The translations under genes were made by a program, and so were the position numbers. DNA of 12,329 nt from a virus (Duplodnaviria > Heunggongvirae > Uroviricota > Caudoviricetes), in the IMG/VR virus record IMGVR_UViG_2737471824_000002; one strand, given 5' to 3'. Below the pieces are notes generated by a model that was given only the letters and a program-made list of their open reading frames with translations, had not been told where the DNA came from and did not search any database. This document shows, in pieces, positions 1-8,446 of the stretch (position 1 is the first letter of the stretch; the number at the start of each line of letters is the position of its first letter).

Positions 1-333
1 TGGCTGTTTTACGCGTATGACAGGCTCCGGAAGACGGTTGTTGCGCACGTATTCGGTGAACGCACTATGGCGACGCTGGGGCGTCTTATGAGCCTGCTGT
101 CACCCTTTGACGTGGTGATATGGATGACGGATGGCTGGCCGCTGTATGAATCCCGCCTGAAGGGAAAGCTGCACGTAATCAGCAAGCGATATACGCAGCG
201 AATTGAGCGGCATAACCTGAATCTGAGGCAGCACCTGGCACGGCTGGGACGGAAGTCGCTGTCGTTTTCAAAATCGGTGGAGCTGCATGACAAAGTCATC
301 GGGCATTATCTGAACATAAAACACTATCAATAA
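1..333 (+). CDS. insB: IS1 transposase InsB, C-terminal part (5' end outside window)
   Basis: Open frame from nt 1 to TAA at 331-333; translation matches the InsB C-terminus. Confidence 0.85.
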
Positions 334-348
334 GTTGGAGTCATTACC
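1..348 (+). mobile_element. IS1 insertion sequence, right-hand portion (window begins inside the element)
   Basis: Frame-1 translation from nt 1 matches the C-terminal part of IS1 InsB (…[35 protein letters not shown]…[11 protein letters not shown]), and the sequence ends with the IS1 terminal inverted repeat …ATCAATAAGTTGGAGTCATTACC at 326-348. Recognised from memory of IS1. Confidence 0.9.
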
Positions 349-544
349 TGGCAGCTGAAGGGCCACGCAGACCATTTATCCGGCAAAATTCCACGCGTAA
401 TCCGGTGGTAATTTCTTCTGCATCGCGGAGATTGAGCGCTGAAACATGAAGCTGGACATCGATACGACCATCGGATGGGGTGATAAGACCCTTGCCGCTT
501 TTGCCGTCAAAGGTTTTGACAATTCCTGTCATTTTACGGGACAA
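344..544 (-). CDS. cspF: CspF/CspH-like cold-shock-domain protein, 3' end altered by the IS1 insertion
   Basis: 66-aa [30 protein letters not shown]…[12 protein letters not shown], a CspF/CspH-type paralogue divergent from cspB. The final Arg codon straddles the IS1 end at 347-349 and the stop codon (344-346) lies inside the IS1 inverted repeat, so the native last ~5 codons are replaced. Confidence 0.75.
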
Positions 545-648
545 AAAAATTCCTTAATACTGATAACTTGGCGCACTATACACACGTTCCTGAAGAAAGC
601 TATAGTTTTTTGATGGGGTTGAAGATGGCTGGATGTCTAAAATAAACA

Positions 649-677
649 TTGCTTCATATGTTCAACTATGCGTTAAT
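649..677 (+). promoter_or_regulatory. Putative cspB promoter (cspA-like: -35 TTGCTT, 17-bp spacer, -10 GTTAAT)
   Basis: TTGCTT at 649-654 and GTTAAT at 672-677 with a 17-bp spacer, resembling the cspA promoter (TTGCAT/CTTAAT); this leaves a ~160-nt 5' UTR before the cspB ATG, typical of the cspA family. Confidence 0.45.
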
Positions 678-685
678 GATTGCGT

Positions 686-702
686 CGGTTTGAAGAACAG
701 AC
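686..702 (+). promoter_or_regulatory. Cold-box-like element at the start of the cspB 5' UTR
   Basis: CGGTTTGAAGAACAGAC resembles the cspA cold box (…GGUUUGACGUACAGAC); a GCCGAAAGGC box also occurs at 816-825 just before the SD (TAAGGAA, 832-838). Confidence 0.45.
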
Positions 703-844
703 GATATACGAAGTAGTTTACTAAAGCAGTTCTCATTTCAGGTGTTATTCACTTATTCCTTCTTTGAGTCTCTCCAATTAAGTACGAAGTCGTTTCTGTT
801 ATGCAAACCATTTATGCCGAAAGGCTCAAGTTAAGGAATGTAGA

Positions 845-1060
845 ATGTCAAATAAAATGACTGGTTTAGTAAAATGGTTTAACGCTGATAAAGGTTTCGG
901 CTTTATTTCTCCTGTTGATGGTAGTAAAGATGTGTTTGTGCATTTTTCTGCGATTCAGAATGATAATTATCGAACCTTATTTGAAGGTCAAAAGGTTACC
1001 TTCTCTATAGAGAGTGGTGCTAAAGGTCCTGCAGCAGCAAATGTCATCATTACTGATTAA
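845..1060 (+). CDS. cspB: Cold shock protein CspB
   Basis: 71-aa [74 protein letters not shown] with RNP1/RNP2 cold-shock-domain motifs; matches CspB as I recall it. Confidence 0.95.
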
Positions 1061-1171
1061 AATTCATCGCTCGTCTGTATACGATAACGAAGAAGGCTGA
1101 TGCCTGAGTAGAGATACGGACAGAGTAGTGAATATTGGATCTCTTTAATAAAAAGTAAGGAGGTCCAATAC

Positions 1172-1207
1172 ATGAAACAATGGCTAGCATATTTGGCAAA
1201 ATCTTAA
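1172..1207 (+). CDS. Candidate 11-codon mini-ORF (MKQWLAYLAKS) with a strong Shine-Dalgarno; function unknown
   Basis: TAAGGAGGT at 1156-1164, 7-nt spacer, ATG at 1172, stop TAA at 1205-1207; followed by hairpins (TGCAG…CTGCA 1241-1255; CAGCAG…CTGCTG 1269-1287) and the terminator at 1342-1366. Confidence 0.2.
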   Translation: MKQWLAYLAKS

Positions 1208-1341
1208 TCAGGAAAAGTATGCTAACCATTGTGGTGAAGTGCAGGTTTGCTGCATGAATAGTTTTACAGCAGAAGCTAACTGCTGGCATGGCAAAACAAA
1301 GTGCGTAAGTGGATGACTCCCACAAAAAGCACCACAATCTC

Positions 1342-1366
1342 AAACCCGCTCAGGCGGGTTTTTTAT
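1342..1366 (+). terminator. Rho-independent terminator (mainly plus-strand; weak on the minus strand)
   Basis: Stem AAACCCGC (1342-1349), loop TCAG, stem GCGGGTTT, followed by a T-run (TTTTTTATTAT). On the minus strand the hairpin is preceded by an A-tract and followed by only UUUGAG. Confidence 0.7.
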
Positions 1367-1423
1367 TATCTGCTTTAAATATATTATTAAAATATAAAAA
1401 ATACTTGTTACTAATAAAATCAA

Positions 1424-1594
1424 TCAGGCTACAGCTTTAAGATTTGTCTGGAATACTTTGTTGCAATGAGGGCAGATCAAAAGGGCACCTTTTTGTACTC
1501 TTGAAAAACTGTGTTCTGACTCTTGGGTGCAGTTTGGGCAGGAACATTTAACGAGATAATTACGGCGTGATTTTGAGTTTTTACGTTCTGACAT
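1424..1594 (-). CDS. Small zinc-ribbon protein (CxCxxC…CxxC), function unknown
   Basis: ORF 1424-1645; the internal start at 1594 (MSERKNSKSRRNYLVKCSCPNCTQESEHSFSRVQKGALLICPHCNKVFQTNLKAVA, 56 aa) is preceded by AGGAA, while the upstream ATG at 1645 has no SD. Two Cys pairs ~20 residues apart suggest a zinc ribbon. Convergent with cspB. Confidence 0.45.
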   Translation of the reverse strand: MSERKNSKSRRNYLVKCSCPNCTQESEHSFSRVQKGALLICPHCNKVFQTNLKAVA

Positions 1595-1813
1595 AGGCTT
1601 TTCCTGTATAAATGGCCGTATACAGTACACTAAATATGAAAACATTTCTCGTATTATTATTTTATATATGACTTTCTTTCAAAATAATTACCCACATTTT
1701 TAATGTGTATGTTTTTTTAGCGCCGTTGAGAACAACGTGTGCTGTCAAAACTACCCCGTAGACTCCGATCTTTTCAAACATATTGCACCATCCGTGTACA
1801 TCGGGGTGAGGAT

Positions 1814-2029
1814 ATGAAATCAATGGATAAGTTAACAACAGGTGTTGCCTATGGCACATCGGCGGGTAATGCTGGTTTCTGGGCATTGCAGTTACTCGAT
1901 AAAGTAACTCCGTCACAGTGGGCTGCAATCGGTGTGCTGGGTAGCCTGGTTTTTGGCCTGCTGACGTATCTGACAAATCTTTATTTCAAGATTAAAGAAG
2001 ACAGGCGTAAGGCTGCGAGAGGAGAGTAA
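1814..2029 (+). CDS. essQ: Class II holin / pinholin (phage 21 S-like), dual-start motif MKSM
   Basis: [71 protein letters not shown]; two TMDs and a charged C-terminus; the Met1/Met4 dual start is typical of the holin/antiholin pair of S21. It lies immediately upstream of ydfR and the SAR endolysin. Confidence 0.9.
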
Positions 2030-2033
2030 TCCA

Positions 2034-2341
2034 ATGACTCAAGACTATGAACTGGTTGTGAAAGGAGTCCGTAATTTTGAGAATAAAGTTACGGTAACTG
2101 TAGCCTTACAGGACAAAGAACGCTTTGACGGTGAAATTTTTGACCTGGATGTCGCCATGGACCGTGTTGAAGGAGCTGCGCTGGAGTTTTATGAGGCAGC
2201 AGCCAGAAGGAGCGTCCGGCAAGTCTTCCTGGAAGTAGCAGAAAAATTGTCAGAAAAAGTTGAGTCTTATCTGCAGCATCAGTACTCCTTTAAGATTGAA
2301 AATCCTGCCAATAAGCACGAGCGTCCTCATCATAAATATCT

Positions 2342-2345
<4 letters not shown>
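2034..2345 (+). CDS. ydfR: YdfR-like protein (DUF1327 family as I recall it), lysis-cassette associated, function unknown
   Basis: 103-aa ORF between holin and endolysin, same order as essQ-ydfR-rrrQ in K-12 Qin; its stop overlaps the endolysin start (ATGA at 2342-2345). Confidence 0.75.
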
Positions 2346-3369
<1,024 letters not shown>

Positions 3370-3551
3370 GGTAATATTAAATCGGAACATTTACATCGCG
3401 GAATGTAAAATTTAAATAAAAAGGACTCTTCCATGAGCCAAAATTCCTGAAATCTTAAGGGTAAGATAAAAGGTCTTAATCAGAATGACACGTTTTATTA
3501 ATAAATAAAGCTATTCTTTCATTGCTGTGTTTTTCTTTACAAAAGTAATCC

Positions 3552-3580
3552 TTGCTATGGGTGGTTAATCATGCGTTAAT
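3552..3580 (+). promoter_or_regulatory. Putative cspI promoter (-35 TTGCTA, 17-bp spacer, -10 GTTAAT)
   Basis: Same architecture and shared ATGCGTTAATG core as the putative cspB promoter; gives a ~145-nt 5' UTR. Confidence 0.4.
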
Positions 3581-3731
3581 GGTGTTCTGGTTTGTTACAA
3601 ATTTATCTGAAGCAGTCATTGTTATAATTTTATTATTTGTACCTCTTGAGATTTCCTTGTTGGTTTTTCTCTCTGATATTTTTTTTCGGACCATTCTGCC
3701 CAAGGGCTAATTTCTTCAAAAGGTAATAATT

Positions 3732-3944
3732 ATGTCTAACAAAATGACTGGTTTAGTGAAATGGTTTAACCCTGAAAAAGGTTTTGGTTTCATCACGCCG
3801 AAAGATGGCAGCAAAGATGTGTTTGTCCATTTCTCAGCAATTCAGAGCAACGATTTCAAAACATTAACTGAGAATCAGGAAGTTGAATTTGGTATTGAGA
3901 ACGGACCTAAAGGTCCTGCCGCTGTTCATGTAGTGGCGCTTTGA
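3732..3944 (+). CDS. cspI: Cold shock protein CspI
   Basis: 70 aa [70 protein letters not shown]; matches CspI as I recall it. Confidence 0.95.
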
Positions 3945-3954
3945 GGTAGACAAT

Positions 3955-4143
3955 ATTACAAACCATATTCACTTTAGATGCCCGTGTTGTCATGGTTCCC
4001 AGTATAGAACATCATCTTTTGATGTTTCTGACATGAATCCTTTCGGGGCAAAATGTATCTTTTGTAAATCAATGATGATTACATTTGATAATATTTCACA
4101 ATACTTAAATGCCAGCCGTCTGTCGTTGGATTTAAAAAAGTGA
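3955..4143 (+). CDS. Small zinc-ribbon protein (CxCC…CxxC) with no canonical start codon; possible ATT initiation or a start-codon-mutated pseudogene
   Basis: Open frame from the stop at 3931-3933 to TGA 4141-4143, encoding …(I)TNHIHFRCPCCHGSQYRTSSFDVSDMNPFGAKCIFCKSMMITFDNISQYLNASRLSLDLKK. SD GAGGT at 3943-3947 with a 7-nt spacer to ATT at 3955. The first in-frame ATG (4033) lies after the first Cys cluster. A strong terminator follows at 4149-4171. Absent from the ORF track for lack of a canonical start. Confidence 0.45.
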   Translation: MTNHIHFRCPCCHGSQYRTSSFDVSDMNPFGAKCIFCKSMMITFDNISQYLNASRLSLDLKK

Positions 4144-6032: not shown

Positions 6033-6578
6033 ATGGAAGTCAACAAAAAGCAGCTGGCTGACATTTTCGGTGCGAGTATCCGTACCATTCAGAACTGGCA
6101 GGAACAGGGAATGCCCGTTCTGCGAGGCGGTGGCAAGGGTAATGAGGTGCTTTATGACTCTGCCGCCGTTATAAGATGGTATGCCGAAAGGGATGCTGAA
6201 ATTGAGAACGAAAAGCTGCGCCGGGAAGTTGAAGAACTGCGGCAGGCCAGCGAGACAGATCTCCAGCCAGGGACTATTGAGTACGAACGCCATCGACTTA
6301 CGCGTGCGCAGGCCGACGCACAGGAGCTGAAAAATGCCAGAGACTCCGCTGAAGTGGTGGAAACCGCATTCTGTACTTTCGTGCTGTCGCGGATCGCAGG
6401 TGAAATTGCCAGTATTCTCGACGGGATCCCCCTGTCGGTGCAGCGGCGTTTTCCGGAACTGGAAAACCGACATGTTGATTTCCTGAAACGGGATATCATC
6501 AAAGCCATGAACAAAGCAGCCGCGCTGGATGAACTGATACCGGGGTTGCTGAGTGAATATATCGAACAGTCAGGTTAA
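6033..6578 (+). CDS. nohA: Terminase small subunit (lambda Nu1-like)
   Basis: 181 aa MEVNKKQLADIFGASIRTIQNWQEQGMPVLRGGGKGNEVLYDSAAVIRWYAERDAEIENEKLRREVEEL…, near-identical to lambda gpNu1 with its N-terminal winged-HTH; overlaps the start of the A-gene fragment as in lambda. Confidence 0.9.
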   Translation: MEVNKKQLADIFGASIRTIQNWQEQGMPVLRGGGKGNEVLYDSAAVIRWYAERDAEIENEKLRREVEELRQASETDLQPGTIEYERHRLTRAQADAQELKNARDSAEVVETAFCTFVLSRIAGEIASILDGIPLSVQRRFPELENRHVDFLKRDIIKAMNKAAALDELIPGLLSEYIEQSG

Positions 6579-6798
6579 CAGGCTGCGGCATTTTGTCCGC
6601 GCCGGGCTTCGCTCACTGTTCAGGCCGGAGCCACAGACCGCCGTTGAATGGGCGGATGCTAATTACTATCTCCCGAAAGAATCCGCATACCAGGAAGGGC
6701 GCTGGGAAACACTGCCCTTTCAGCGGGCCATCATGAATGCGATGGGCAGCGACTACATCCGTGAGGTGAATGTGGTGAAGTCTGCCCGTGTCGGTTAA
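6553..6798 (+). pseudogene. Terminase large subunit (lambda gpA-like), N-terminal 81-codon stump ending at a deletion junction
   Basis: [81 protein letters not shown] matches the first ~81 residues of lambda gpA; the frame then hits TAA (6796-6798) where tail-fibre sequence begins. The ATPase and nuclease domains are absent. Confidence 0.85.
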
Positions 6799-8446
6799 CA
6801 GCACTTCCGAGTCACTGGCGGCAACACCAAAAGCCGTTAAGGCCGCGTATGACCTGGCTAACGGGAAATACACCGCACAGGATGCAACGACAGCACAGAA
6901 AGGGATAATCCAGCTAAGCAGCGCGACCAACAGCACGTCTGAAACGCTTGCCGCGACACCAAAGGCAGTAAAAGCAGCCAATGACAATGCTGAGAAACGT
7001 CTGCAGAAAGATCAGAACGGTGCGGATATCCCTGGCAAAGATACCTTTACGAAAAATATTGGTGCCTGCCGTGCCTTCGGTGGGTCAGTAAGCACAACAA
7101 CAGGAAACTGGACGACTGCACAGTTTATCGAGTGGCTGGATTCTCAGGGAGCATTTAACCATCCATACTGGATGTGCAAGGGTTCCTGGTCTTATGGCAA
7201 TAATAAAATCATTACTGATACTGACTGCGGTAATATTCATCTCGCCGGAGCTGTCATTGAAGTAATGGGGATAAAGTCAGCGATGACGATCCGCATTACC
7301 ACACCGACCACCTCCACTGGTGGTGGAACAACTAACGCCCAGTTTACCTATATTAATCACGGAACAGATTATTCACCTGGCTGGCGAAGGGACTATAACT
7401 CCAGAAATAAGCCAACGGCATCAGAGATCGGGGCGTTACCGTCAGGTGGAACAGCAGTATCATCAGTTAATCTGGCTTCAAAAGGTCGGGTAACCGCGCT
7501 GACAGACAATACGCAGGGGGCAGCAGGTCTTGAGTTATACGAGGTGTATAACAACGGATATCCAACAGCGTATGGAAATATCATTCACCTGAAAGGGATG
7601 ACAGCCGTTGGCGAAGGTGAGTTACTCATCGGCTGGAGTGGTACAAGCGGTGCTCATGCTCCGGCATTTATTCGTTCACGACGGGATACGACCGACGCAA
7701 ACTGGTCGCCGTGGGCGCAGCTTTACACCTCGGCTCATCCTCCTGCAGAGTTTTATCCAGTCGGTGCACCAATCCCGTGGCCATCAGATACCGTTCCGTC
7801 TGGTTATGCCCTGATGCAGGGGCAGACTTTTGACAAATCTGCATACCCGAAACTTGCAGTTGCTTATCCGTCAGGCGTGATCCCTGATATGCGTGGCTGG
7901 ACGATTAAGGGCAAGCCCGCCAGTGGTCGGGCCGTATTATCTCAGGAACAGGACGGCATTAAATCGCACACCCACAGCGCCAGCGCATCCAGTACGGATT
8001 TGGGGACGAAAACCACATCGTCGTTTGATTACGGAACCAAATCCACGAATAACACCGGGGCGCATACCCATAGTATTAGCGGGACCGCAAATAGTGCCGG
8101 TGCGCACCAACACAAGAGTTCCGGTGCATTTGGTGGCACGAACACGAGCATTTTCCCTAATGGTTATACCGCGATTTCAAATCTAAGCGCGGGGATTATG
8201 AGCACAACAAGCGGTAGTGGCCAGACTCGTAATGCAGGGAAGACATCATCAGATGGTGCTCATACCCACTCGCTGTCCGGCACTGCTGCAAGCGCAGGCG
8301 CACATGCACATACTGTCGGTATTGGTGCTCATACGCACTCCGTTGCGATTGGTTCACATGGACACACCATCACCGTTAACGCTGCTGGTAACGCGGAAAA
8401 CACCGTCAAAAACATCGCATTTAACTATATTGTGAGGCTTGCATAA
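6788..8446 (+). pseudogene. stfQ: Side tail fibre protein (lambda Stf-like), N-terminally truncated; only a GTG pseudo-start
   Basis: The C-terminal ~230 aa match the lambda Stf C-terminus ([13 protein letters not shown]…[11 protein letters not shown]…[30 protein letters not shown]…[31 protein letters not shown]); the STSE(S/T)[11 protein letters not shown] motif occurs twice near the 5' end; the central part is unlike lambda. The N-terminal virion-attachment region is missing. Confidence 0.85.

Follow-up and report, generated by a model that had tools for sequence, protein, structure and literature searches.

Hot spots of IS1 insertion were reportedly described by Galas, Calos and Miller in 1980 and by Zerbib et al. 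in 1985, in lacZ/Tn9 and in pBR322. Target duplications of 9 bp predominate for IS1, target motifs are loose, and AT-rich targets of 8–9 bp are preferred (PMC10359306). In summarised LTEE data, all five IS1 events carried a duplication (PMC11708052). At the locus described here, IS1 cuts short a non-essential gene in a defective prophage; the junction belongs to an ordinary and thoroughly known class, and shares its terminal repeat, its transposase frame and its type of gene truncation with the IS1 insertions (IS1A/IS1X2) found in E. coli. What it adds is only mildly interesting, namely the recurrent, orientation-independent use by IS1 of one nucleotide.

The IS1/cspF junction

The window (i.e. 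the whole stretch of 12,329 nucleotides that was analysed) begins within an IS1A-type element, which is followed by the cspF region of the Qin cryptic prophage (Table 1). The IS1 part was identical at 347 of 348 positions to the last 348 bases of a complete 768-bp IS1A from strain 81, and matching genomes annotate it as an IS1A family transposase. The InsA/InsB' transposase with its DDE_Tnp_IS1 domain, which characterizes the IS1 family, was recognized in the open reading frame at 67–333 (Pfam PF03400, profile positions 44–131 of 131, E = 5.7e-48), of which the window holds the C-terminal part only. The second mark of the family, terminal inverted repeats of about 23 bp starting with GGTRATG, was found at the right end of the element, the other end lying outside the window: positions 326–348 read ATCAATAAGTTGGAGTCATTACC, the exact reverse complement of the IS1 right inverted repeat (IRR), and all 23 positions match the complete IS1 copies of strains cS76a, 81, 2018-18.25PC, 19SZHZ869Rt and PC6.

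Table 1. Features at and around the IS1/cspF junction (positions in the window).
Feature	Position	Strand	Remarks
IS1A-type insertion sequence, 3' 348 bp	1..348	+	runs off the window start; 1 mismatch in 348 vs complete IS1A
insB, C-terminal part of the IS1 transposase frame	67..333	+	stop codon ends at 333; PF03400
IS1 right terminal inverted repeat (IRR)	326..348	-	GGTAATGACTCCAACTTATTGAT, tip inward; 23/23 vs complete IS1 copies
Truncated cspF, 66 aa	344..544	-	ends ...GPSAAR, stop; from the ORF list; PF00313 (CSD); K-12 cspF identity from 349
Predicted 9-bp target-site duplication copy	349..357	.	TGGCAGCTG; first 9 bases outside the IS1 tip; inferred, one copy visible
cspF-cspB divergent intergenic region	545..844	.	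intact, identical to K-12 (alignment)
cspB, 71 aa, intact	845..1060	+	PF00313, E = 1e-31; annotated cspB in K-12, same relative position

Immediately beyond the repeat, positions 349–640 are 100% identical to the cspF region of K-12 MG1655 and of many other genomes, so that comparison with this IS1-free allele, as the original prediction had proposed, yields an identity that ends exactly at 348/349. The junction is thus a precise element boundary and not a chance resemblance, with IS1 ending at 348 as predicted. An assembly artefact, in which a contig became chimeric where it ends at a repeat, would fit with the window and its related contigs ending inside IS1, where short-read assemblies break. 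Such an origin is nevertheless extremely improbable, given that the break falls precisely on the final base of the IS1 repeat and that five contigs, drawn from several independent assemblies and samples, share the junction.

The truncated CspF protein

CspF of K-12 has 70 residues and ends in ...GPSAANVYLS, whereas the protein encoded in the window has 66 and ends in ...GPSAAR. The minus-strand frame runs across 348/349 into IS1, and the break falls after the first base of codon 66 (Asn-66). The final Arg codon (349–347) takes its A from cspF and its GG from IS1, and the TAA stop codon (346–344) is derived from IS1; five residues, NVYLS, are thereby replaced by a single Arg, and 17 nt of cspF, stop codon included, are absent on the window side of IS1. 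The main points had been read from the letters beforehand, including the arginine codon across the junction and the stop codon supplied by IS1, and the description of the sequence given there is correct in every detail.

The truncated frame retains a cold-shock domain (PF00313, E = 6.3e-20, profile positions 1–61 of 66), the last profile positions being absent because of the truncation. Residues 1–67 of CspF align with the solved structures of CspA (2L15, 1MJC) and CspE (3I2Z), and the NVYLS residues align with the C-terminal strand region of both. The lost residues therefore match the claim that the last beta-strand is affected; they correspond to the C-terminal beta-strand of the cold-shock barrel (beta-strand 5 of CspA, 1MJC). 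A complete five-stranded beta-barrel is not retained in this allele, as the C-terminal NVYLS is replaced by R, and the shortened protein has probably lost stability. Since cspF is dispensable and belongs to a defective prophage, a strong phenotype would not be expected.

An outward promoter at the IS1 end, pointing antisense to the csp gene, had also been proposed. This part of the original prediction was not borne out: a consensus scan for sigma-70-like promoters returned no site spanning 326–380 on either strand. The only -35-like hexamer in the repeat, TTGGAG (334–339), faces by eye TGAAGG, GAAGGG or AAGGGC as a -10, i.e. a G-rich stretch where the -10 would be needed. The arrangement expected of a hybrid promoter, with a -35-like element in the IS end 16–18 bp from a -10-like element in the flank, was not present.

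Prophage context and distribution of the allele

From cspF onward, the visible side of the window preserves both cspF orthology and the gene order of the Qin region (ydfT - cspF - cspB - ynfU - essD), the ydfT side lying beyond the window. The Qin gene order then continues to the end of the visible DNA through cspB, ynfU, essD, ydfR, rrrQ, rzpQ and cspI, on to ydfJ. The intact cspB neighbour fixes the context as the Qin cryptic prophage. A strong hairpin (1342–1361) of 8 pairs with a T run after it, resembling an intrinsic terminator, is located ∼280 bp downstream of cspB. Farther along, ∼930 bp (6562–7490) have no counterpart in the Qin of K-12 MG1655, and a 552-aa tail-fibre ORF is found at 6788–8446, where K-12 has only a 3' remnant; this ORF and the extra ∼930 bp imply that the prophage in the window is slightly less decayed than the K-12 copy. 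Elsewhere the two differ by 18 substitutions.

The window is identical to draft contig JUCS01000004.1 (GCA_000798255.1) over all 10,544 shared bases, and that contig starts inside IS1. The exact 66-aa product was found on five contigs only, among ∼15 billion proteins, and all five belong to NCBI draft assemblies. The truncated allele is already catalogued in public databases, its product having been deposited as UniParc UPI0005422B6D under the name 'cold shock-like protein CspF'. As one contiguous match, the junction of the window type was absent from all 5,426 complete E. coli genomes, as was the junction in the opposite orientation; the nearest IS1 copies in complete genomes lie ∼340 bp (strain 81) and ∼170 bp (CEA106S) away. 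The insertion had been called strain-specific, and with no complete genome carrying the junction (0/5,426) and five contigs encoding the product this wording holds. Rarity in complete genomes and a product confined to drafts point to a lineage-specific and probably recent event, as does the identity of the flank to K-12. One further CspF-cluster protein of 66 aa, from a contig of 4.7 Mb, was considered as a junction carrier and rejected, since it is a full-length CspF for which a later start codon was called. A literature search for IS1 and cspF in combination yielded no relevant publication.

Simple insertion or adjacent deletion

In the sequence of events that we favour, an IS1A-type element would have inserted itself into the Qin cryptic prophage in a single E. 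coli lineage, one of its ends becoming linked to the chromosome directly after base 1 of codon 66 of cspF. Most likely this one-step insertion duplicated TGGCAGCTG and left the 17-nt cspF tail beyond IS1. The other IS1 end would then be joined to ...CATGAAAGGTAAACATTGGCAGCTG, with ydfT and a 29-aa ORF retained, and the far junction would read ...GGTAAACATTGGCAGCTG followed by GGTGATGCTGCCAAC. In the orientation of the window, a 9-bp duplication is predicted to appear as ...GGTAAACATTGGCAGCTG abutting GGTGATGCTGCC, with the K-12 sequence CATGAAAGGTAAACAT adjoining the IS1 end. 

All five junction contigs, and the window itself, end inside IS1, as expected for short-read assemblies. Searches for the left junction, allowing duplication lengths of 7–15 and either IS1 end, gave no match in metagenome contigs, GTDB species representatives or IMG/VR viral contigs, and neither did searches for the right junction in the same three collections. 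The left-junction ORFs predicted for a simple insertion were absent from the protein collection, in which ORFs of their size (29–34 aa) are rarely called.

As a guide, eight IS1 copies with both flanks visible were compiled from complete genomes, in or near the cspF/cspB and cspH/cspG clusters. A 9-bp duplication was present in four of the eight: downstream of ynfU in strain cS76a (TTATTATTT), between ydfT and the 29-aa ORF in strain 81 (CCCGACGTT), in ydfT in strain EC23 (GGGCGAAGC) and just beyond the 29-aa ORF in strain CEA106S (AGCAGACTC). These four clean duplications fall within the same 1.4-kb stretch of Qin and make a simple insertion plausible. The other four copies lack a duplication and border deletions. 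In 2018-18.25PC the cspF 3' flank is joined to the rspB side of Qin, in 2273-PO3 a point downstream of ynfU is joined to smrA, in PC6 cspB is joined to ydfJ, and in 19SZHZ869Rt the cspH 3' end is joined to gfcB.

The four copies without duplication, all of which abut deletions, lend some weight to the view that the junction in the window marks where an adjacent deletion or rearrangement mediated by IS1 came to its end, produced by intramolecular transposition or by recombination between two IS1 copies. The far side would then consist of unrelated DNA, with neither duplication nor cspF tail, and it is in keeping with this view that all junction contigs stop inside IS1. We consider such an origin possible, though only tentatively so. 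Each of three lineages must then already have had a suitably placed IS1, with both orientations represented, and three direct insertions are the more parsimonious assumption; moreover, the event appears recent, and recent IS1 events usually carry a duplication (PMC11708052). One-step insertion with target duplication is favoured over deletion or rearrangement, with a probability of roughly 0.6, because the event is probably recent and appears to have been reproduced independently (discussed below).

The ∼1.4-kb stretch of Qin between ydfT and ynfU, which extends from the antiterminator gene to the lysis cassette, shows at least seven different IS1 insertion points across complete genomes (those of cS76a, 81, 2018-18.25PC, 2273-PO3, EC23, PC6 and CEA106S), three of which are tied to multi-kilobase deletions. 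This region looks IS1-prone, or else its disruption looks tolerated or favoured. In 2018-18.25PC (NZ_AP023286.1, 940–3350 of the extracted locus), two IS1 copies of opposite orientation flank a 459-nt hypothetical gene that has a truncated rspB-like gene on one side and, on the other, a cspF allele with a frameshift; the arrangement is composite-like, without target duplications.

IS1 ends at one nucleotide of cspF

The cspF nucleotide that adjoins IS1 in the window also adjoins an IS1 end in two further draft genomes. In JUCS01000004.1, which corresponds to the window, the flank is met by the IRR of an IS1A-type element (GGTAATGACTCC...) and is identical. In NLWS01000024.1 the left inverted repeat (IRL) of an element in the opposite orientation (GGTGATGCTGCC...) touches a flank that is 98.2% identical and then diverges into a more complete prophage. 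The third junction, in JBJQKB010000088.1, is formed by the IRR of another isoform (GGTAGTGACTCC...), next to a flank with 12 substitutions in 5,590 bases; this IS1 differs from that of the window at 6 of 109 bases and matches IS1X2-type copies, which are common in E. coli, with 100% identity. All three junctions encode the same 66-aa protein, because the IS1 tips give GG TGA, GG TAA or GG TAG. The Qin-like prophage of NLWS01000024.1 is much more complete than that of K-12; portal and large-terminase genes follow its csp/lysis region (1–4100 of the extracted locus).

The terminal repeat next to the flank is beyond the reach of exchanges within IS1, and the three junction types therefore represent at least three independent events. 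Numerous IS1 copies that recombine with one another, and flanks that are of the Qin-type cspF in all three cases, could also suggest one ancestral insertion that was later altered by gene conversion or inversion between IS1 copies, with no hot spot involved. This we regard as very unlikely. The repeat abutting the flank (IRL in NLWS01000024.1, IRR in the others) is not exchangeable by recombination within IS1, and the isoform in JBJQKB010000088.1 differs at position 5 from the tip, which leaves only 4 bases of homology beyond. The flanks of the two other junction types also differ from the window by 12 and 90 substitutions, and the NLWS01000024.1 junction lies in a different, more complete prophage.

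As a control for site specificity, 19 chimeric CspF proteins were predicted for neighbouring IS1 junction positions: nine in the same codon phase, covering codons 62–71, and ten in the other two phases, from 2 bases upstream to 4 downstream and with both IS1 ends. None of the 19 occurred in the collection of ∼15 billion proteins in which the observed chimera is present; the control is a limited one, as exact-protein look-up finds only junctions that give this product, and the 19 alternative junction classes were built on the K-12 allele. Three hits at one nucleotide, together with the absence of all 19 neighbouring chimeras, make the site look like an IS1 hot spot, with the codon-66 nucleotide of cspF as the preferred target.

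Recurrence could also reflect selection and not target preference, if insertions between ydfT (quuQ) and the toxic lysis cassette (essD-rrrQ-rzpQ) are advantageous by blocking its late transcription. Complete genomes, with their many and varied IS1 insertions and deletions in the 1.4 kb between ydfT and ynfU, would agree with such an effect. Regional selection, however, leaves the nucleotide-exact identity in both orientations unexplained, and it does not sit well with the absence of the neighbouring junction classes; we judge it unlikely as the cause of the recurrence.

Target sequence

Several features of the sequence around codon 66 may bear on its use by IS1. The predicted target TGGCAGCTG has a G+C content of 67%, and other natural duplications nearby, CCCGACGTT and GGGCGAAGC, are also G+C-rich. 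The target lies at the edge of a stretch of 65–85% AT downstream of cspF. An 8-mer, GCTGCCAA, spans the insertion point and equals positions 7–14 of the IS1 left inverted repeat; the match was noticed post hoc, and one of this length is expected by chance in ∼4% of 39-bp windows of the region. Both the homology to an IS1 end and the AT-rich edge agree with what is classically described for IS1 hot spots. No exact IHF consensus site was found within 150 bp of the target, and matches with one mismatch lie at 20–110 bp.

The 8-mer is a possible cause of the hot spot, one that we put forward with little weight. That codon 66 is a sequence-directed hot spot, with the transposase, which binds the inverted repeats of its own element, drawn to the IRL-like GCTGCCAA, seems rather doubtful. 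If true, the IRL-like motif would explain why IS1 struck one nucleotide repeatedly and in either orientation although the target is G+C-rich, and the cspF site would be a natural and compact substrate for studying IS1 target choice.

Significance and comparison with known IS1 systems

As a routine IS1 event in a defective prophage, the junction carries little weight for biology at large. It is useful as a strain or lineage marker, and it gives a warning that the deposited 66-aa 'CspF' is an IS1 chimera and not a natural variant. The recurrent hit at one nucleotide provides a natural example for the old question of what creates IS1 hot spots.

Among E. coli IS1 copies, four of those neighbouring the site show the canonical 9-bp duplication, whereas the window shows one IS1 end only. 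A similar distinction applies to the IS1-mediated adjacent deletions in Qin (2018-18.25PC, PC6 and 2273-PO3): IS1 tips likewise abut csp-region DNA there, but both flanks are visible, kilobases have been lost and no duplication is present, while in the window one flank is visible.

The cspH paralogue offers a parallel, in that IS1 is likewise found on the 3' side of a cspF/cspH-type gene of a divergent csp pair. In K-12-like genomes, IS1D lies ∼420 bp downstream of cspH and leaves that gene intact, whereas the IS1 of the window truncates cspF. In 19SZHZ869Rt (NZ_CP080085.1, 3326–3533 of the extracted locus), an IS1A tip truncates chromosomal cspH to 68 codons; its junction lies 11 nt upstream of the position homologous to that of the window, without a duplication and with gfcA and part of gfcB deleted.

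The predicted target of the window, TGGCAGCTG, is G+C-rich, in contrast to the AT-rich preference described for the 8–9-bp targets of IS1 (PMC10359306). In other respects the cspF site resembles the classical IS1 hot spots: one nucleotide appears to have been hit repeatedly and independently, in both orientations, and the target shares a short stretch with an IS1 end (GCTGCCAA, IRL positions 7–14) and borders an AT-rich segment. Unlike the classical hot spots, which come from experimental insertion spectra, the site in cspF is inferred from three natural isolates.
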